From Chiloscyllium plagiosum (Eukaryota), in assembly GCF_004010195.1 (NCBI RefSeq), contig NC_057753.1:5131513-5195512 (forward strand): a stretch of 64,000 nt of DNA, read 5' to 3'. The first letter of the stretch is position 1. Every line of letters starts with the position of its first letter. The notes under the pieces are model-generated. The model was not told the origin of the DNA, did not search any database, and was given only the letters and a program-made list of their open reading frames with translations. Positions 40,941 to 56,200 of the stretch are shown here, piece by piece. Position numbers and translations under genes: made by a program.

Positions 40941-41515
40941 CTGAACAGTTGGGTCAGTTGCTCTGTCTCCAGTAGAATGAGCTGGAGATAAGTGGACAAT
41001 ATCTCTGGGGGATTTTAGCCCAAGAAGGAGGATGAGAGGGAGGTAGAGAGAGGGAGGATCTGTAACTTGCAGGGATCAAGAGAAGAGGATATTCCACAGA
41101 AACTGGAATTGTCTGTTTAATGAATTCTCTGCCTCACTGACAGTGAACTGTTTGGTCATCTCCTGTCACAGGGACTAGAAGAGGAGGGCTCACATCAAGG
41201 AAACCCAAACGAAACATCAGATCTGACAGAGTCGCTCCATCCATCAGGAGCTGAGCATCACCGGCCTCCGATTGTGGAAGGAGGAACGTTTGTCTCTTTT
41301 GTCTCTGAGGGTGTAGATTTCAAACATCAGCGTGACTGGAAACGCAGAAACGCACATGAATGAGGGTGTTCGAGTGAAATGACTGTGGAAAGAGCTTTAA
41401 CCGGTCACGCAGTCTGAAAACAAAAATTGCATGTTTACAGCAGGGAGGAACTCTCTGTCTGGACAAGGGTTCAACTGCTCCTTCAGTTTGGAGGGACACA
41501 AAGGCCCTGTAGACC

Positions 41516-42445
41516 ATGGGGAAGCCACGTAAAAGTGTGAAGCGTGGGAAGGGATTCAGAGGTCCATCCAAGGTGGATGGTCATCAGCGCAAAACCACTG
41601 GGGAGAGGCCATTCATCTGCTCCACGTGTAACAAGGGATATCCTAGTCTGTCCGGTTTATGTATCCACCGGAGAACTCACTCCGGGGTGAAATCGTACGT
41701 CTGTGACACGTGTGGTATGGGATTTGCTTATTCATCCAGTTTACATGTACATCAGCGAATACATACTGGGGAGAAGCCATTCACATGTTCCAAGTGTGAA
41801 AAGAAATTTGCTCATTTATCCAGCTTCCAGGTACACCAGAGGGCTCACACCGGGGAGAAGTCATTCATCTGCCCCAAGTGTGGTAAGCGATTTGCTCATC
41901 CATCTGGTTTACGTACGCACAAGAAGGTTCACATTGGGGAGAAACCATTCACCTGCTCTGATTGTGGGAAGGGATTCACTCAGTCATTCAGGTTACAACA
42001 ACACCAGAGAATTCACACCAGGGAGAATCCATTCATGTGCTCTGAATGTGGCCGGGGATTCGCTGAGTCATCCACCTTACATAAGCACCAGAAAGCTCAC
42101 ACTGAAAAAAAACCGTTCGCCTGCCCTGACTGTGAAAGGAGATTCTCTTGGTTAACCAACTACCAATCACACCGGGGTACTCACACTGGCAGAAGCCCGT
42201 TCACCTGTTCTGACTGCGGGAGGAGATTTGCTCATTTTTCCAAGTTCTGTGAACACAGGAGAACTCACACTGGAGAGAGACCGTTCATCTGCCCTGACTG
42301 TGGGAAGGGATTCGCTCAGACGTCCACTTTGCATGTGCATCAGAGAACTCACACTGGAGAAAGGCCATTCACCTGCCCCAAGTGCAGGAAGAGATTCACT
42401 CAGGTTTCCAGCTTATATCAACACCGGAAAAGGTGTGCGAAATGA
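41516..42445 (+). CDS. C2H2 zinc-finger protein, 9 C2H2 fingers plus a terminal C2HC finger
   Basis: 309-aa ORF; acceptor-like TCCTGTCACAG at 41161-41171. Confidence 0.92.
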   Translation: MGKPRKSVKRGKGFRGPSKVDGHQRKTTGERPFICSTCNKGYPSLSGLCIHRRTHSGVKSYVCDTCGMGFAYSSSLHVHQRIHTGEKPFTCSKCEKKFAHLSSFQVHQRAHTGEKSFICPKCGKRFAHPSGLRTHKKVHIGEKPFTCSDCGKGFTQSFRLQQHQRIHTRENPFMCSECGRGFAESSTLHKHQKAHTEKKPFACPDCERRFSWLTNYQSHRGTHTGRSPFTCSDCGRRFAHFSKFCEHRRTHTGERPFICPDCGKGFAQTSTLHVHQRTHTGERPFTCPKCRKRFTQVSSLYQHRKRCAK

Positions 42446-43815: not shown

Positions 43816-44302
43816 GATCCCATTTCCCAGCATTTGGTCCGCAGCATTGTCTCCCATGCTACTTCAAGTAATCATCTAAATATTTCTTAAAATGTTGTGC
43901 TGAATCCTGCGTCTACGCAGTGAGTGACAGGCACCTGCCACCCTCTGGCTGAAAGTATTTCTCCTCGAATCCCCTCTGATTCCTGCTCCTTTTGTTTTGT
44001 GGATCTACGTCACCTTGTTGTTGATCCTGTCCTTAAAAGGGAGAAGTTGCTTCCTATCATACCTATCTCTGCCTCTCATAATTTTGTAGCTCTCAGTCAG
44101 GTCCCTCCTCGATCTTCTCTGCTTCAAAGGAAACACCAGAACTTATTGAGCCTCTCTTCATAGTTATATTGCTGCATCACAGGAATATCTTAGTGAATCT
44201 CCGCCGCAGCCTCTCTAATATAGTCACGGCTGTTTGCTCAAGCCACTTGGGAGGGTTTAAACTAGTTTGGCTGTGGGGTGATATTCAAAGCAATAGGGAG
44301 AC

Positions 44303-45135
44303 CTAAGACCATAAGATATAGGAGTGAAAGTAAGGCCATTCGGCCCATTGAGTCCACTCTGCCATTCAATCATGGCTGATGGGCATTTCAACGCCACTTA
44401 CCCGCACTCTCCCCGTAGCCCTTAATCCCTTGCGACTTCAAGAATTTATCGCTCTCTGCCTTGAAGACATTTAACGTCCCGGCCTCCACTGCGCTCCGCG
44501 GCAATGAATTCCACAGGCCCACCACTCGCTGGCTGAAGAAATGTCTCCTCATTTCTGATTTAAATTGACCCCCTCTAATTCTAAGGCTGTACTCGCGGGT
44601 CTTAATAACCCCCTTGACGGAAACAAATTCCCAGTGTCCACCCTTTCTAAGCCATCTTGTAAGTTTCTATTAGATCTCCCCATAACCTTCTAAACTCTAA
44701 TGAAGAGAAGGTCGAGGACTGTTGAGAAGTTATTGCGAGTAAGTTAAATAGTGAAGGCCGTGTTGGTAATCCTAGTATGAGACAGGGCAGGCAGGACCGA
44801 GACAGGAAGCAAAGGAAACTGGCTTAAACAATGCAAAAGGCCTGACAGGTAAGACAATTGAACTTGAGACATGAATGGATATGTGGGACTGGGATATTAT
44901 TGCTATTACAGAAACATGGCTGAGCGAGCGACAGGATTGGTGGCTCAGTGTTCTGGGTTACCGATATTACAGCAAGGATAGAAGGGGAGGTAAGAGAGGA
45001 GGAGGAATTGCATTTTGATTATGGAGACCATTGTGGCATTACTGAGAGAAGACACTGAAGGGTTAGTCCACTGAGTCTATATTGATCGAACTGAGAAATA
45101 AAAAGGGTGTGGTGCTGCTGTCTTTTTAACAAGGT
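44303..45135. mobile_element. CR1 3' fragment (44303-44705 minus) and endonuclease fragment (about 44800-45135 plus)
   Basis: TAAGACCATAAG tail; DIIAITETWL. Confidence 0.75.
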
Positions 45136-45399
45136 TGTTTTGACGTTGGGTCTCCTTTAAAGAGAGGTCATAGAGGCAGAGGTGCTGAGGGATCTGGGAA
45201 GAGCGTAGTTTGGCAGGGGAGGGGAATGGCCCGTTCTCCCAGTTTGGTTTAGCTGTGGCAGTCACAAGATGCTGGAGTCTAGGAAGGTTGCAAGGTTCAG
45301 CAAATGATTCCTGACTGACTTTCCCTCTGCAATCTCTTTGGCTGTTGTTCCCTCCTGCCTGTAAGAATGCTGCGCACCAGGTGCTGGGAAATGGGATCA

Positions 45400-45750
45400 G
45401 AATCATAGAATCCCTCCAGTGTGGAATCAGGCCATTTGGCCCAACAAGTCCATACTTAACCTCCAAAGAGTAACCCACCCAAACCAATTCCCCGTACCCT
45501 ATTACTCTACATTTACCCCTGACTAATTCACCTAACCTACATATCCCTGAACACTATAGGCAATTTAGCACGGCTCAATCCCCCCAGACCTGCACATCTT
45601 TGGATTGTGGGAGGAAACCGGAGCAATTGGAGGAATCCCAGACACAGGGAGAGAATGTGCAAACTCTACACGGACAGTCGCCTGAGGCTGGAATCGAACC
45701 TGAGTCCCTGGCGCTGTGAGGCAGCGGTGCTAACCACTGAGCCACTTTGT
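45400..45750 (-). mobile_element. HE1-like SINE
   Basis: Reverse A/B boxes and core. Confidence 0.85.
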
Positions 45751-46283
45751 CGATCAGAGAGTACTTGATGATTGTTTTGGGCACGATGAGCCAAAGAGTC
45801 TCTTTGCGTGCTTTAATACACGATGACCCTCTCTAATGCTTCGCGTACTTCCGAAACGTGTCCTCTTTTTTGCTAAGGGGTGTATTTATGGGGTGTTACT
45901 GAATCCGAACAGTTCCTTAGTTAAGTTGCTGTTTCGGGTCAGTTCAGTTTTCCAATACTTAGGTAATTCTAAATTCTGTTTTCTTTTGGTTGTGTTTCAA
46001 CGGTCGTGTTTAAATCTGTTCTGTTTTGCTTAAAGCCGACTGGTTTGACCAGCTGCATCACACCTGGAACACCCACTTCACATCTGCCTTTACACTAAAA
46101 AGTAAGGGTCAAGGCGACCTCCTTAACAGATTTTGAGGGTGTCTGCCGTGGTCCATGACATCACTTTGATCGTATTCTACTGTAGCCCCTTCCAATAGTC
46201 TGCAGAAGACTGAGGAACAAACACATAAAGAGATCGCAATGCAATGTGAAAAGATTAAATTGTACTATCTCTCTGGACATTAA

Positions 46284-46848
46284 TGTAATATTAAAGTGTT
46301 AAACTGTACTGTCTTTGAATGGGGATGACAGTCATGAAGCAAGGCTAATGACTCCCACTCCAATTAGACAGTCATTTGCTGCTACTCCTGCTATTGTCAA
46401 GTTAAACTATCATTGAAATGCTTTCTGGGCAGAGGTATGTTGCACCTGCATTGTCTTGGGGAATCGTCGAGTCAAGAAATTGTCTGTGTAACGATTCCCC
46501 AGGATTAGGCCATTAGCATTTGCATTATCTCTGAGGATGGATCTCATCCTGCCATTGTATCTGGGGTAATGTGAGAGTGTGAGTGACTGGGGTTTGTCTT
46601 AAGAGGCATGTGACTATGGGGGCATGGCCAGAACATCTGTTGCATTGCCAACTGACCTGTATAAACGTGGATGTGTTTTCTTTGTTTGGGGCCTCACTTT
46701 GACTTGACCTTTGTACGCCTGCGAAGAGAGTCAAAGAGGGGTCACTTAGCTTGTACAGGCTTTTGTAAACCTTAACTGTTTGCAGAAGTTGGTGTGTGCG
46801 ACTGGCATCTCATGTACAAAACCTCGGGAAAAGGGATTCCAACATACA
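46284..46848 (+). mobile_element. LTR-like segment, distantly related to the LTR at 50002-50570
   Basis: TG...CA; shares TG(T/A)AATATTAAAG start, GGCAT.TGACTATG.GG..ATGGC, TGTATAAA and CAGA.GTTGGTGTGT blocks. Confidence 0.6.
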
Positions 46849-46944
46849 AGGACCTTCCAGGTGGACTGAATAAGCGATTGTCTGAGTGTTGGTTGCATGA
46901 GACAAATGGGCCCACAAGGTAAGCTTCACCTTGATCTCTCAGTT

Positions 46945-47167
46945 GCGCTCGCGCTCTCTCTTGCTCTGTCTCATTCTCTCTCTTGCTCGCTCTTTCTCGC
47001 TCTCGCTATCTCTCTCTCTTGCTCTCGCTCTCGCTCTATCTCTTGCCATCTCCCTCTCTTTTGCTCTCTCCCTCTCTTTTGCTCTCTCGCTCTCTTTTGC
47101 TCTCTCGCTCTCTTTTGCTCTCTCGCTCTCTCTCTCTCTCTCTCTCTTTCTTTCTCTCGCTCTCTCT
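46945..47167. repeat. (CT)n-rich compound microsatellite
   Basis: CTCTCG/CTCTTTTG units. Confidence 0.95.
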
Positions 47168-47169
47168 AA

Positions 47170-50001
47170 ATTGACCACTCAGACGACCTCTCATCCTCTG
47201 GGACTTGGTTGTGATGGAATCTTTGAGGTCACTGTCACACTTACGCACCAACGAGTCGCTTTCTGCGAAGCTGGGTTTTAACTGGGTTTCAGAACAGTTA
47301 AATCTGGGTTAGAGTCCCAGGGTCGAATTGGTGTTAGCGTCCCAGAGTTAAAAAGGAGTTGGAGTTCTTTGGTGGGGAGCGGGGGGGGGGTATCGAAAAG
47401 GGGTTGGAGTCCTCTAGTGGGGAGATTTGAGGGTCCAGAGCAAAACAAAAGAATAAACAATTTGGTACTTCTTAAAATTGTTGACTTTATCCCCCACACC
47501 TCCCCTGAGAAGTACTTTTAGGACGACATGGCGTCACCGGGAAAAGGGGGAGAAAGTGGAGCTGGTCCCCTCGGGTCCCGACAGTAAAGTGCATTGACTG
47601 CCGGGGAAGCTTTGTCTGGGTTTTTGTGCTGTGAACTCCATGCTGCAAGTCCACCTTCTGGGAAAGGAGGAGCGGCTGGACTGCAGCACCACGTGGTCCG
47701 CTGCGAGGCTTTTCTCTTTTTGTGGGTGTGATTTCATCGTGAGGCAACAACTGGTCTGTCTTTCCTTCATGGCCTCGCCCGGCAATGGGGTGGCGTTCCT
47801 CGGTCCGGTTTCCGCCGAGCTGAGGATGTGTCAGTGATCGTATTGTGCACCAGGCGCTGTGGGGTCCGTGGAGCTTTGGGAATCTTGGACCAATGCTTGG
47901 GTTTTTGTTCCTGTGTGCCGTGGTGGTTGATATGGAGTAGGCAGGTCTGATCTATTTTTGGTCCAACTCTGATGTAGATCTTTTGGGGGCCACCTCCTCC
48001 ATCTTTTTGACTCCTCATTTTTCATTTCACGGATCGTCTCCAAGTGAACTGAGAGGGGTTCTCAAATGTGCACGTTTCCCCCCCCCCCCGTATTAAAATG
48101 AGAGGAACTCTGACCAAAGGCTCTTCAAAACAAAAACGAGAAACACTGACATTAAGGTTGTACTAATACTTGGGTCAAAAAAAGGGCATTTCAGCGTAAG
48201 TTGTGCCATGATGTGAGTGTTTGATATTTAAATATTGTGGTTTGTGAAAATACCGGTTCCGAAAATCCTTTTAAGTGACTGTTTTGCCTTGTTTGAATCA
48301 GGATCTCAATTCAGTGTGTTTTGTGCGCTATGTCATACGCCCGGTTTGTTTTTACATTGAAATTGTACAACATTAGGTCCTTATCAAACTTGGAACCTTA
48401 ATACAGAGTGCCTTGAGCCTCTGATTTGTTTGAAATTTTACAGTGCCTGTTTCAAAAAAGAAACTATTGTGTCAGTGGTCATGCTTTAGCCAGCTGAGAG
48501 TATTGTATTAAAATATCTTTGCTGCTGTGTTTTTTAATGCAGAGTGTTCACACAAAAAAAACCACAAGAGTGCAGTTTTAGTTTGATGTTTTGTGAAGAC
48601 TTTAGCGGCTGAGCTGTTTAAATTCTTTCAATTATTGTCAAGACTTCATTGGCCCCCTTCCTATTGCAAATTCAAAGAACGTTGATCTCTACCAAAGTTT
48701 CCACTGTAATCCCGACTGTTTTATTTGGAAAGTTTCATTTGGAGGACATATTTTAATATATTCTGCATTGTGTTTCCCATGAATATTTGAGATTTCAATC
48801 TGAACTGAAACTGCCTCTTAAATGGTTAAAGCGCAGGAAACATTTTGCCGTTTTCTTGCTGTTCCAGATTTTTGAAATAACTTTTCCTGACAGTTTTCAC
48901 GTCCGCCAAATATTAACTTGTTAAAGGAAAATAATCTTTGAATAACCCGAAGGAGGTTCCTGAGGGTTTGATTTTAGGACCATTGATTGTTGTTTTATAT
49001 TTGACTGAATTGTTTAGGCAGTACAATGTGCAAGTCTATGGGTTGTATAAAACTTGATAATGTCATAAAATCGTGAGCAGAGTAACATTCTTCAAGAATT
49101 CAAAGGATGTTCAAATAGGCAGACACAATTTAGTGCAGTAAAATGTGTGACTGTCTTCATACTGATAACCGCCTTGGCAAGGAAGGAATGAGAGAGGAAA
49201 TGCAAAGATGCTTTCAGGAGCTAACATTGTCTCTAGAGTTTCCTCATTCGCAGGTAAAGCACGCCTTCGGACCACCGCCTGCCCATCCATAACCTGATCC
49301 AACGGATTCAATCGGCTCCCCAGTCATGAGCACGAAAAGTGAAGAAGCTAACAACAGTGAAGAGGAGGTTGGTATGCTTTTTGTCAGTGGCCTTCCTATG
49401 GACATCAAACCACGTGAGCTTTACCTTCTCTTCTGACTATTTAAGGGATATGATGGTTCATGAACATCACAATATCCAGTTAACCTTGTTACATTTGACA
49501 GCAGAACAGGAGCAGAAGCAGCAAATAATGCTGCGTTCACCTAGCCTACTGCTGCTGCAGCTGCTGCACCACACACTCAGATGCGCTAGTATCCTCCATC
49601 TGAAGCAAGTCCACAAGGATGGAAGTCTCATCAGTTTTGTGAAGCATTGCCCTTATCCACCAATTCAGATTTCTCCATGGAGTGATGCACAAGGACAGAT
49701 TGAATTTTGTTTTCAGTTTGAAGGAGGTTTTGGAGAACTGGCTCATTTCCACTCGACTTGGAGGGGAGTGGAGTGGTCACTAAGGACTGCGGATTTAAGA
49801 ACTTTACCGGTGAACCTTTTTTCCTCGTGGGAGGCTCCTGGGAATCCTTTGGGCTAGTGATTTTTGTTGTTATAATCGTTGTATGTTGCGTATCAATAAC
49901 TTGCTTAAGTATTGGCTGTAGGATTCTTATCAATAAATTGTTAGTGCCTTTCTCATTTCCCCCATCAAGACGGTTATCCACGGAATGATAAAAGGAGGGA
50001 A
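47170..50001 (+). mobile_element. Degenerate internal region of a non-autonomous LTR/ERV-like element
   Basis: Integrase-like DFIGPLP at 48642-48662, hydrophobic env-TM-like tail at 49758-49988, polypurine tract AAAAGGAGGGAA at 49990-50001. Confidence 0.5.
49326..49643 (+). pseudogene. RBPMS2: Processed (intronless) RBPMS2-like pseudogene with an internal deletion
   Basis: One frame reads [101 protein letters not shown], matching the recalled RBPMS2 RRM start and C-terminus. Confidence 0.9.
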
Positions 50002-50570
50002 TGAAATATTAAAGAGCTAACTTGCTCAGCTGACCTGCAAGAAATTGAATGCCGTGGGGGTAAGGTGGTGTGACTTTGGCTTATAGCTGGAATGTGGGAG
50101 GTTTACACAGCCATTTCCTTGCCATTCAGGGATGATCTACATTTTCATCCAGAAATCAATAAGAACATTACAGTTGGAATCTGACTACTCCCCTCCAGTT
50201 ACAAAAATCAAACACTTGGCAACAGATTTGACCATCAAGGGATGATTTGCTTTACACTGTTTCTGGAGGTGGGGTGTTCGCTGTATTGTATCTGGAGGGG
50301 CATTTGACTATGAGGGGATGGCTGAGGGTTGTCTTGCGGGCAGTACTGACTATGATGTTGAGAGTTTTGTATAAAGCAAAGACTGTTCCCTTTGTTCAGA
50401 GAGAGATTTTTGCCACGACCCCTTAAGCTGTGCGAGGTGTGTGCTAAAGGCTCCTCCAGAAAGCTTGTATTGTACTGTACTTAATAAATTTGGTTGCCTG
50501 TTCACAGACGTTGGTGTGTTGTAGTTCCATCAAGGGTGTAAGAATCTCAAGAGTAAAAGAACCTAATACA
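50002..50570 (+). mobile_element. 3' LTR of an ERV-like element
   Basis: Starts TG right after the PPT, contains TATAAA (about 50370) and AATAAA (about 50483), ends TACA. Confidence 0.75.
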
Positions 50571-51750
50571 CAAATTTTTGCAAACTTCATCACGTGTATA
50601 ATTAGCTTGCCATGATTGAACAGGATGGACCTACTTATGTAAGATTCTGATTATCTGGTTTGAAGATCACAGAGAGTGGAATGTAACGTATAGATCACAA
50701 AGTGATATCTCCAGTCTAGATTATTAAGGGTTAATTGAACATGGCAATAAGCTATTGATGAAAAGCAAGTGGAAACCGGCTGTTTCGCAAGGAGGTGGCC
50801 TTGGTGTGAGAACAGCTTCATTTGCAACAACAGTGAGACTTGTTTCCGACCACCAAGCACAGAGGAATGCTTGGAAGAAGTACTCAAGAGGCAGTTGAGC
50901 ATGTTTGATTGAATTTGGTTTATTATTTCTGTCACATGGACTGAGATACAACGAAAAGCATTGTTTTGCACACTATTCAGACAGATCATACCATACATAA
51001 GCCCATCGGGGGGAAAGAGAACAGGATGCAGAGAGTCGTGTTACAGCTGCAGAGAAAGAGCAGAGACCGAGAGATCGACGTTAAAATTAAAATAATGTAA
51101 AATCAAGTATATTAACACTGGGGACTTCTCTCATTTTTTCCGACTTGACCATTGGACTAGGTTCATAAGCAGTGCCGTGGAAGTTGAGATTGAGCTCCAA
51201 GCGCCAACCATCTCCAGGCTTCTCGAGGGTGAAACGACGTGAGACTCCCTTGTTTGGATATATCTAAAGTAGTTTAAGTTATTAATTTTGTTGAAATCTA
51301 TCTAAAGTAGTGTAAATTAATAATGATTAGATTACTTTATGTATATTAAGTGACCAAAGCTAATAGATTTCTGTGACGCGCTAGTTTGGTCTCAGGGGAC
51401 ATGTCATACCCAGTTCTGGGGGGACACGTTTCGGAAGTACATGAAGCGTTAGAGAGGGTCATTGCTTATTACAGCACGAAAAGAGACTCATCGTGCCCGA
51501 AACGATCATCACGTAGCTCCCTAATCGGCATGGTGGCTCAGTGGTTAGCACTGCTGCCTCACAGCGCCAGGGATCCGGGTTCGATTCCAGCCTTGGGCGA
51601 CTGTCTGCGTGGAGTTTGCACATCCTCTCCCTGTGTCTGCGTGGGTTTCCTCCGGGTGCTCGGGTTTCCTCCCACAGTCCAAAGGTGTGTGGGTTTGCGT
51701 GATGTGTTGCCCGTTGTGTTCAGGGATGTGTAGGTTAGGTGCATTAGTCA

Positions 51751-53236
51751 GGGGTAAATGTAGAATCATAGGGCAGGAAGAATTGGTCTGGGTTTGTTAC
51801 TCTTTGGAGTGTCAGTGTGAACTTGTTGGGCCAAATGGCCTGTTTCCAAACTGTGGGGATTCTATGATTCTGATTCCTGTTTCCCAGCACTTGGTCTGCA
51901 GCATTGTCTCCCAAGCCACTTCATGCAATTACCTAAGTATTTCTATCAATACTGCATTTACGCAGTGAGTGTCAAACACCTACCACCCTCTGGCTGAAAC
52001 AATTCCTCCTCAAAGCCCCTCTGAACAGCTTTTTTTAAAAATCTGCGTCCCTTAGTCGATCCTGTCATTAAAAGGGAAAAGTTTTTTTCCTCTCATACCT
52101 ATCTCTGCCTCTCATAATGTTGTAGATCTCAGTCCATAAGACATGGGAGTGGAAGTAAGGCCATTTAATCATGGCTGATGGGCATTTCAACTCCACTTAC
52201 CCGCACTCTCCCCATAGCTCTTAATTCCTTGCGAGTTCAAGAGTTTATCACTCTCTGCCTTGAAGATGTTTAATGTCCCCGCCTCCACTGCGCTCCGTGG
52301 CAATGCGTTCCACAGGCCCACCGCTCTCTGGCTGACGAAATGTCTTCTCATTTCTGTTTTAAATTGACCCCCTCTAATTCTAAGGCTGTGCCCACGTCCT
52401 AGTCTCCCCGGCTAATGGAAATAACCTCCCAGCGTCCACCCTTTCTAAGCCATGCATTATTTTATAAGTTTCTATTAGATCTCCCCTCAACCTTGGGGTA
52501 AATGTAGAATCATAGGGCAGGAAGAATTGGTCTGGGTTTGTTACTCTTTGGAGTGTCAGTGTGAACTTGTTGGGCCAAATGGCCTGTTTCCAAACTGTGG
52601 GGATTCTATGATTCTGATTCCTGTTTCCCAGCACTTGGTCTGCAGCATTGTCTCCCAAGCCACTTCATGCAATTACCTAAGTATTTCTATCAATACTGCC
52701 TTTACGCAGTGAGTGTCAAACACCTACCACCCTCTGGCTGAAACAATTCCTCCTCAAAGCCCCTCTGAACAGCTTTTTTAAAAATCTGCGTTCCTTAGTC
52801 GATCCTGTCATTAAAAGGGAAAAGTTTTTTCCTATCATACCTATCTTTGCTTCTCATAATGTTGTAGATCTCAGTCCATAAGACATGGGAGTGGAAGTAA
52901 GGCCATTTAATCATGGCTGATGGGCATTTCAACTCCACTTACCCACACTCTCCCCATAGCTCTTAATTCCTTGTGAGTTCAAGAGTTTATCACTCTCTGC
53001 CTTGAAGATGTTTAATGTCCCCGCCTCCACTGCGCTTCGTGGCAATGCGTTCCACAGGCCCACCGCTCTCTGGCTGACGAAATGTCTTCTCATTTCTGAT
53101 TTAAATTGACCCCCTCTAATTCTAAGGCTGTGCCCACGTCCTAGTCTCCCCGGCTAATGGAAATAATCTCCCAGCGTCCACCCTTTCTAAGCCATGCATT
53201 ATTTTGTAAGTTTCTATTAGATCTCCCCTCAACCTT
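51751..53236. repeat. Near-identical tandem duplication, about 743-bp unit
   Basis: 51751-52494 is repeated at 52495-53236, both starting GGGGTAAATGTAGAATCATAGGGCAGG. Confidence 0.9.
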
Positions 53237-56200
53237 CTAAACTCCGATGAATACAATCCCAGGATCCTCAGCTGTTCATTGTATGTTAGGCCTACCATTC
53301 CAGGGATCATCCATGTGAATCCCCGCTGGACACGCTGCAGTGCCAGTATGTCCTTCCTGAGGTGTGGGGCCCAAAATTGGACACTGTATTCTAAATGGAG
53401 CCGAACTAGAGCTCTATAAAGTCTCAGAAAGACATCGCTGCTTTTATATTCCAATCCTCTTGAGATAAATGACAATATTACACTTGCTGTCTTCACCACG
53501 GTCTCAAGCTGCAAGTCAATCTTTAGAGAATCCTGGACTAGCACTCCCAGATCCCTTTGTACATTGGCTTTATGAATTTTCTCACCGTTTAGAAAATAGT
53601 TCATGCCTGAATTCTTTTTTCCAAAATGCAAGACCTCACATTTGCTCATTTCCTGGACCATTCTCCTAAACTGTCTGAATCTTTCTGCAGCTTCCCCACC
53701 TCCTCAGAACTACCTGCCTGTCCACCTAACTTCATATCATCGGTGAACTTCGCTAGAATGCCCCCAGTCCCTTCATCCAGCTCATTAATATATAAAGTGA
53801 ACAGCTGCAGCCCCAACACTGAACCCTGCGGGACACCACTTGTCACCAGCTGCCATTCTGAAAAAGAACCATTTATCCCAACTCTCTGCCTTCTGACAGA
53901 TGGCCAATCCTCAGTCCATGCCAATAGCTCACCTCAAACACCATGGGCCCTCACCTTACTCAGCAGCCTCCCATGAGGCACCTTATTAAAGGCGTTTTGG
54001 AAACCTTATTAAAGGTTTCCCTGGTCTAACCTAATTGTTACCTCTTCAAAGAATTCTAACAGGTTTGTCAGGCACGACCTTCCCTTACTGAATCCATGCT
54101 GACTTATTCTAACTTGACCGTACACTTCCAAGAATTTAGAAATCTCATCCTCAACGATGGATTCTAGAATTTTAACTACAACTGAGGTTAGGCTAATTGG
54201 CCTATAATTTTCCATCTTTTGTCTTGATCCTTTCTTGAACAAGGGGGTTACAAACGCGATCTTCCAATCATCTGGGAATTTTCCTGACTCCAGTAATTTT
54301 TGAAAGATCAGAACCAACGCCTCCACTATTTCCTCCGTCACCTCCCACAGAACTCTAGGATGTAGCCCATCGAAGCCTGGAGATTTATCAATTTTTAGAC
54401 CTTTTAGCTTTTCTAGCACTTTCTCTTTTGTAATGGCTACCATACTCAACTCTGCCCCTTAACTCTCCTTAATTGTTTGGATATTACTCATGTCTTCCAG
54501 TGTGAAAACTGACACAAAGTACTTGTTAAGTTCTTCAGCTATTTCCTTATCTCCCATCACTAGCCTTCCTGCATCAATTTAGAGTGGCCAATTTCTACTT
54601 TTGCCTCTCGTTTGTTTCTTATGTATTGAAAGAAACTTTCACGATCATTTCTAATATTACTGGCTAGTTTACCTTCATATTTAATCCTCTCCTTCCTTAT
54701 TTCTCTCTTTGTTATCCTCTTTGTTTTTGTAGCCTTCCCAATCTTCACACCCCTGTCATTACCCTTATTTAACTGTAACACCATTCCATCTGACAATGCC
54801 TTCTCTCTTTCAAACTGCAGACTGAACTCTACCATATTATGATTGCTGCCTCCTAAGTGTTCCCTTACTTTAAGATCTTTTATAAAGTCTGGCTCATTAT
54901 ATAGCATGAAGTCCAGAATAGCCTGCTCCCTTGTGGGTTCCATCACAAGCTGTTCCAAAAAGCCATTCTGTAAGCATTCCATGAATTCCCTTTCTTTGGA
55001 TCCACCGGCAACATTACTCACTTAGTCAATTTGCATATTGAAGTCCCCCATGATCACCGTGACCTTGCCTTTCTGAGAGAAAGTGAGGACTGCAGATGCT
55101 GGAGATCAGAGCTGAAAATGTGTTGCTGGAAAAGCGCAGCAGGTCAGGCAGCATCCAGGGAACAGGAGAATCGACGTTTTGGGCATGAGCCTGAAGAAGG
55201 GCTCATGCCCGAAACGTCGATTCTCCTGCTCCTTGGATGCTGCCTGACCTGCTGCGCTTTTCCAGCAACACATTTTCAGCCCTTGCCTTTCTGACATGAC
55301 CTATCTATTTCCTGGTACATTTTGCACCCCAGTCCTGGCCACTGCTGGGAGGTCCGTACATAGCTCCCATTATGGGTTTTTGTCTTTATGGTTCCTCAAC
55401 TCCACCCAGACGGACTCCACATCATCTGACTCCATGTCATTCAGTGCCATAGATTTAATTTCATTCTTAACTCACAAGGCAACCCTGCCCCCTCTGCCCA
55501 CCTCCCTGTCTTTTCGATAAGTTGTAAATTCTTGGATGTTTAACTGCCAGTCCTGAACCCCCTGCAACCACGTCTCTGTGATGCCTACCACATCATAATC
55601 ATTTACAATGATTGCTGCTGTTAATTCATCTACTTTGTTACGAATACTATGAGCATTCAGGTAAAGCACCTTAATACTAATTTTTCTTATCCTCATGATT
55701 TCCATCACCTCTAGTAGTATGTCCTAAGTAATTCTTCCTTTTTTGTTTTATTTCTAGTCTGCCTAGAACTTTAGCTCTGCTCACATGCTAACCTGCTGCT
55801 TACTTTCTACTTGACTCCATACTCCCTGTTGCTTTCCCTTTCCCCTCCCCCCCACCGACTCACAAGTTTGAAGTCCTAGTGACCACCCTATTGATCCTTT
55901 TCACCAGAACGCTGGTTCCAGATCGGTTCAGGTGGAGGCCGTCCCATCGGTACAGATCTCCCCAGTTCCAAAACTGATGCCAATGTCCCATGAAATGGAA
56001 TCCCTCCTTCCCACACCAATCTCTTAGCCACGTGTTTACTTCCCTAATTCTCTGTTCCCTATGTCAATTAGCACGTGGCTCAGGCAGTAATCCAGAGATT
56101 GTGACCCTCGAGGACCTGTTCTTCGATTTTGTTCCTCGCGCTTGATAATCCCCAAACAGATCCTCCTTCCTAGCCTTGCCGATGTTGTTAGTGCCAACGT

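Follow-up and report, generated by a model that had tools for sequence, protein, structure and literature searches.

RBPMS2 sequence within an LTR element

The window, a 64,000-nt stretch of the Chiloscyllium plagiosum genome, contains spliced host RBPMS2 sequence at positions 49298-49834, within an LTR element (Table 1). This cargo is flanked on both sides, in the same orientation, by pieces of one LTR-element family: a pol remnant upstream, and an env tail, a polypurine tract and an LTR downstream.

Table 1 Features of the window copy. Percentages are nucleotide identities; L numbers are loci of the same genome.
Feature	Positions	Strand	Basis and remarks
5' LTR, type B	46240..46832	+	76% to both L082 LTRs, weak similarity to own 3' LTR; terminal bases deleted together with the greater part of the primer-binding site
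Primer-binding site remnant and ERV leader	46833..47460	+	46833-46940 85% to insert-free ERV L118
(CT)n-type microsatellite	~46924-47170		Interrupts the ERV leader
Non-coding interior common to type-B copies	47454..48125	+	47454-47750 widely shared, likely a 5' gag region (putative)
AT-rich block, deleted lineage only	48126..49147	+	619 candidates, best 83%
Two joined ERV pol remnants (integrase region)	49148..49277	+	78-91% to insert-free ERVs L117, L121, L122 and L123; rve and Integrase_H2C2 there
5' spacer, short remainder of its gag-region piece	49278..49297	+	Longer by ~150 nt in early copies, part of this from the RT of the ERV itself
RBPMS2 mRNA, 5' UTR end and exons 1-4	49298..49531	+	85% to parent mRNA 339-579; start codon ATG 49326; stops 49434, 49461
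RBPMS2 mRNA past the 255-nt deletion: exon 6 end, exon 7 and ~190 nt of 3' UTR	49532..49834	+	83% to parent mRNA 835-1163; stops 49542, 49587
ERV env tail (transmembrane helix and cytoplasmic tail region)	49835..49989	+	Runs on into env in 7 of 30 loci, the insert-free ones; env ectodomain family PF22307 upstream of the tail in L120
Polypurine tract	49990..50001	+	Sequence; the same tract precedes the 3' LTRs of other copies
3' LTR, type Aw, AATAAA at 50483	50002..50570	+	Nearer to insert-free ERVs than to own 5' LTR

A sequence-only reading of the window had recognised an RBPMS2 frame at 49326-49643 with four in-frame stops, and both the frame and the stops were confirmed. The best protein match of this frame is a shark RBPMS2 (E 2e-34), its PDB matches are RBPMS/RBPMS2 RRMs, and it aligns to RBPMS2 residues 1-74 and to the C-terminus. 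The claimed absence of introns held against the parent gene, as this copy of a multi-exon host gene spans five exon joins (1/2, 2/3, 3/4, 6/7 and 7/8). The internal deletion, previously put at roughly 85 codons, measures 255 nt, which is exactly 85 codons and in frame. There is no run of eight A between 49300 and 50010, in line with the reported lack of poly(A). As for the sequence after the frame, the polypurine tract and the LTR were correctly placed, but the stretch 49648-49834, which had been taken for env, is RBPMS2 3' UTR; the env tail begins only at about 49835.

The parent RBPMS2 gene was located, using an exon that the copies lack, as one strong locus on contig C40 (G000:C40). It has eight used exons spread over ~106 kb; each of its seven introns is of the GT-AG kind, and its frame has 194 residues. 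Within 170 kb around this gene, no match to the LTR or interior of the element was found with window 47000-50600 as the query.

The window copy itself carries LTRs of two types. Positions 46238-49933 are colinear with type-B copies, and from 49828 onward the sequence resembles L118 (83% identity over 49828-50570). Reverse transcription yields matching LTRs, so the mismatched pair makes post-insertion recombination likely: the window copy probably inserted as a type-B element and later exchanged its 3' end for the one of an insert-free relative, via the shared env tail. No target duplication was found at the two outer ends of the copy. Contigs from sequencing runs X1 and X7 span the recombination join, which is thus not an assembly error. 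Of note, two other loci combine a type-Aw 3' LTR with another upstream LTR, as the window copy does (C in L176, B in the insert-free L119), apparently a recurrent replacement of the 3' end by this LTR type.

The surroundings of the element were also inspected. A C2H2 zinc-finger frame of 310 residues lies 3.8 kb upstream on the same strand (41513-42445, +) and is a possible read-through source. LINE remnants (minus-strand RT and endonuclease-like frames) occur at 44020-45863 and 51422-55723, and in these same intervals each flank of the element has SINE-like copies in inverted orientation.

No run containing this stretch is recorded as RNA. Contigs from X1 (type guessed to be RNA) and X15 (type unknown), near-identical to the window copy, tile 47422-50336, and 50550-50817, outside the LTR, has zero depth. 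One 805-nt piece from X1 differs from the window at the stop at 49461 and at five other places, and could be an allele or a close relative. From X19, the one recorded RNA run, of which 2% was read, we recovered 46 reads, mostly 90-95% alike and so mostly derived from other copies. Nine of them have a terminal poly(A) at 50504-50506, shortly past the AATAAA of the LTR, and some family members are thus polyadenylated within the LTR; the window copy is likely transcribed as well. An 894-nt contig from X7, a run from another organism, matches at 95%, a similarity clearly beyond the 81-84% seen between copies, which suggests that the contig represents the same insertion in a relative. Two deleted copies (P0123 and P0132) appear in the NCBI annotation as RBPMS2-like proteins that start in the upstream viral remnant.

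A dispersed family and its order of decay

A DNA search of the 3.56-Gb genome returned 596 candidates, and 39 other scored matches span nearly the whole query at 81-84%, on dozens of contigs. The sequence-only reading had proposed, as a check for capture followed by amplification, a search for multiple copies sharing the same insert and deletion junction; there are hundreds, dispersed and with identical joins. A 32-nt pattern across the deletion join hit 260 sites at ≤3 mismatches, against 0 for the control. Tried on 23 deleted copies that had been obtained with other queries, this pattern recovers 12, so the number of deleted copies is at least 260, and about 500 is a fair estimate. The deletion join is identical in all 30 loci that were fetched.

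The copies fall into three classes: those with the full coding sequence (mRNA ~288-1165), a branch without 825-1008, and the deleted class to which the window belongs. About 35 copies are early, lacking either the 255-nt deletion or its companion 5' deletion. The early-only 5' spacer has 38 matches, and each of the 30 that were fetched carries RBPMS2 mRNA. Locus L143 has the 255-nt deletion and still keeps the 5' spacer, which sets the order of events. It had been proposed that the deletion was part of the capture; the existence of full and intermediate forms does not support this, and places the deletion later, in one lineage. Nor did the ATGCT microhomology suggested at the deletion hold up, because the parent and seven of eight readable full-length copies read T/C-ACT and not GCT at this place; the exact microhomology amounts to 1 nt (3 of 4 at best), and ATGCT was rejected.

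The tree of copies is star-like, with five nodes at support ≥80 and tip branches of 0.07-0.10. Given this poor support, the order was taken from the nested deletions and not from the tree. The full coding sequence came first, after which a side branch lost the C-terminus. The 255-nt deletion followed (intermediate L143), then the loss of the 5' spacer with the gain of the 1-kb AT-rich block, and finally the main burst, in which the interior, flanked at first by type-A LTRs, likely came to lie between LTRs of types B and C that have different primer sites.

The AT-rich block (48126-49147) is absent from all seven insert-free ERVs and all 12 early copies, and is ~240 nt longer in some copies (L018). 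Among 11 loci picked by this block, two lack the RBPMS2 cassette. Its source was not found in two genome searches, which gave element-like copies only (4 of the 42 matches of one search were examined), and it has neither a notable Rfam match nor a long frame. It may be a second captured host sequence.

Traces of movement after capture are present in the copies. A 4-bp target duplication matching at three or four of its four positions was seen in 14 of 20 scorable elements, with a chance match of ~5% each; nine of 29 elements were unscorable. The LTRs of 14 pairs are 0.10-0.17 apart. The LTR pairs and target duplications indicate that the element moved after capture, and the LTR divergence together with the star-like tree points to an old burst. 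The family thus shows the paired LTRs, TG..CA ends, short duplications and dispersed sites of a non-autonomous ERV, although the window copy does not. Some early copies are clustered 50-130 kb apart (G000:C26:40839585, 40889384 and 40951693; C5:119764262-119890765); two copies, L147 and L151, both end at mRNA position 997, and local duplication after insertion is possible.

Type-A LTRs are found in 11 of 12 early copies, the remaining one being without its 3' end. For 31 deleted copies, the 3' LTR is of type C in 22, B in five, A in one and Aw in two, and is missing in one, shares that may be biased since 19 of these copies were chosen from the best pattern matches. The cargo therefore occurs in three LTR/primer-site types. 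The type-A primer site fits tRNA-Ser(GCT) and that of type C fits tRNA-Ser(AGA), both tRNAs being called by ARAGORN. The type-B site fits a third motif with 55 sites, putatively tRNA-Leu; ARAGORN called no tRNA gene for it in the one locus fetched. As LTR types and primer sites differ, the interior likely swapped them by recombination with other ERVs.

Origin of the cargo and alternative explanations

Seven of 30 loci found with the env tail are insert-free, and in the five of these that were scanned, RNase H, integrase or env families were detected. Among ranked PDB matches, the RT of L123 is closest to that of MLV (7e-26, against 2e-18 for foamy virus and 4e-11 for Ty3), and the env of L120 matches fusion proteins of the gamma-retrovirus/filovirus type. 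With an MLV-type RT, a separate RNase H, an integrase, an env with a gamma-type TM and a 4-bp duplication, these relatives are, as judged from sequence, broken class I (gamma/epsilon-like) ERVs.

Comparison with these loci indicates that the cargo replaces most of env and the end of the integrase. The mRNA and env have 8 nt in common at the 3' join, TGGGAGGA, exactly in four of the seven insert-free loci and with one mismatch in the other three, as would be expected from template switching. On the 5' side the sequence is a mosaic: the integrase breaks off at 6 nt that also occur in a gag-region piece (seen in one locus, L123), then come ~60 bases and a piece from the RT of the virus itself (73-78% to L117), which joins the mRNA at an imperfect similarity of 9-10 nt. 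Microsimilarity is thus found at the switch points on both sides, the 5' joins resting on one or two decayed insert-free loci. Multiple switches within one particle have been described by Tan et al. (PMC5131818).

We consider it very probable that a class I ERV copied a spliced RBPMS2 mRNA by template switching, and that the resulting gene-less element then reached at least 260 sites with the aid of helper proteins. The shared joins, the insert-free ERV relatives, the 8-nt microhomology and the absence of poly(A) support what the sequence-only reading had suggested, namely that an LTR element captured the sequence and was then amplified. The RBPMS2 mRNA would have been co-packaged with viral RNA, presumably in the germ line or oocyte, and taken into the genome of an ERV of the shark lineage during reverse transcription, with switches from integrase to the gag piece (6 nt), from the RT piece to the mRNA (imperfect 9-10 nt) and from the mRNA to env (8 nt). 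The gene-less product would then have been mobilised in trans by the proteins of a helper virus.

It is very unlikely that a LINE retrocopy, or read-through from a provirus in the RBPMS2 gene, brought the sequence into a provirus that the ERV machinery only amplified and trimmed. LINE remnants are abundant in this genome, and later deletions, which are common in the family, could have erased a poly(A) and a target duplication. However, no examined copy reaches past parent mRNA position ~1168, so that the captured sequence ends ~1.8 kb short of the first AATAAA of the parent, and the insert, which terminates in the 8 nt common to env, stands in place of ERV sequence and is no addition to it. 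We found neither an A tail, nor a 3' end at the poly(A) site, nor an insert-specific target duplication, the signs expected of a LINE-made processed pseudogene. The lack of element matches around the parent gene also speaks against this alternative. As a sole cause, a LINE retrocopy or read-through is largely refuted. There is next to no chance that the copies reflect segmental duplication or assembly error: a few matches are indeed located on small contigs, and there is some clustering, but the copies are only 81-84% alike and lie on dozens of contigs with their own target duplications, and independent runs tile the window copy, including the stretch from cargo through env to LTR. Segmental duplication is refuted by flanks that differ between copies.

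Retention of the cargo because it benefits the element, be it through its protein (oncogene-like or an RNA-binding factor of the germ line) or through a signal in its RNA, appears unlikely. It would be favored by the in-frame main deletion, by a cassette that outlived most of the viral sequence and three LTR types, by a raw dN/dS against the parent of 0.39-0.60, and by the purifying selection on crocodilian captures (PMC4299795). The low raw ratio is due, however, to later evolution on the parent's own branch, since early copies share 11 synonymous and one non-synonymous differences from the parent; omega on copy-private changes is 0.87-0.99 in early copies. The value of 1.46 in the deleted class probably arises because inherited changes are counted repeatedly. 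The 255-nt deletion cuts the RRM, 25 of 32 readable deleted copies have a stop at one common codon, none of 53 copies has an intact 194-codon frame, and UTR and coding parts have similar mutation rates. By these measures the cargo behaves as a passenger decaying neutrally (omega ~0.9-1.0 in early copies), and protein-level selection was rejected for the main burst. Another doubtful proposal is that the RBPMS2 piece serves as an RNA address label, taking the transcript to the oocyte germ plasm or aiding packaging; in zebrafish, the transcripts of rbpms2a are localised in the Balbiani body (PMC6049948). If true, this would explain how the cassette survived viral loss and three LTR/primer swaps to reach hundreds of copies, and transcribed copies could feed small RNAs against an ovary-fate gene.

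With regard to timing, a PHTAF state is common to the copies, Rhincodon and the parent, with PHAAF in Carcharodon, Heterodontus and Callorhinchus, and a Ser-to-Cys change of the parent is absent from the copies; capture is thus likely to have occurred within the carpet-shark line. Dating in years was dropped, as at a rate of 7e-10 per generation (PMC10587355) a divergence of 0.05-0.09 per LTR would take an implausibly large number of generations. No RBPMS2 retrocopy from other sharks was seen among 55 short proteins or 120 of the 223 longer ones listed, a survey of annotations in which pseudogenes rarely appear.

Comparison with known systems

Acutely transforming retroviruses and RecKoRV are defective, helper-dependent genomes with non-viral sequence. 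The protein encoded by the shark cargo, in contrast, shows no sign of selection. In crocodilians, nectin3 in CrocERV31 and KIT-ligand in CrocERV29 (PMC4299795) are likewise spliced host mRNAs in an ERV present in several copies, and nectin3 replaces env, as the shark cargo replaces most of it. The crocodilian captures, however, number six and nine copies with whole frames under purifying selection, whereas the shark family has at least 260 copies with broken frames in neutral decay, in a class I ERV with several LTR types.

The LTR-mediated retroposition described by Tan et al. (PMC5131818) shares with the shark family a partial mRNA between LTR-element pieces, microsimilarity at the joins, a lack of poly(A), multiple switches and further cycles as a non-autonomous element. 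The cases from that work considered here are mostly young and at single or few sites, and neither sharks nor a family hundreds strong is among them. ERV-Hako/HakoP elements, which carry pieces of the SUSD6 and SPHKAP 3' UTRs (PMC11905727), are also defective and spread with a host mRNA piece, and the LTR type varies among carriers in both systems; they differ in belonging to Group II, in carrying UTR only in a handful of human copies, and in their tRNA-Trp primer and 5-6 bp duplications.

Among the papers listed in searches of the open literature, none dealt with this RBPMS2-carrying shark ERV family. The copies are mis-annotated as RBPMS2-like genes in the case of the two NCBI proteins, and they will interfere with RBPMS2 read mapping in a model shark. 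This kind of capture is already known from other vertebrates, at far lower copy numbers in the literature compared here. What sets the shark family apart is its scale, which indicates that a captured host mRNA can attain hundreds of copies without protein function, its preserved series of intermediates and its serial LTR/primer swaps. One genome holds the parent, the insert-free virus and the full, intermediate and deleted forms of the capture, so that each switch and swap can be mapped; as a fossil record of how a retrovirus captured a gene in a cartilaginous fish, this series is unusually complete.
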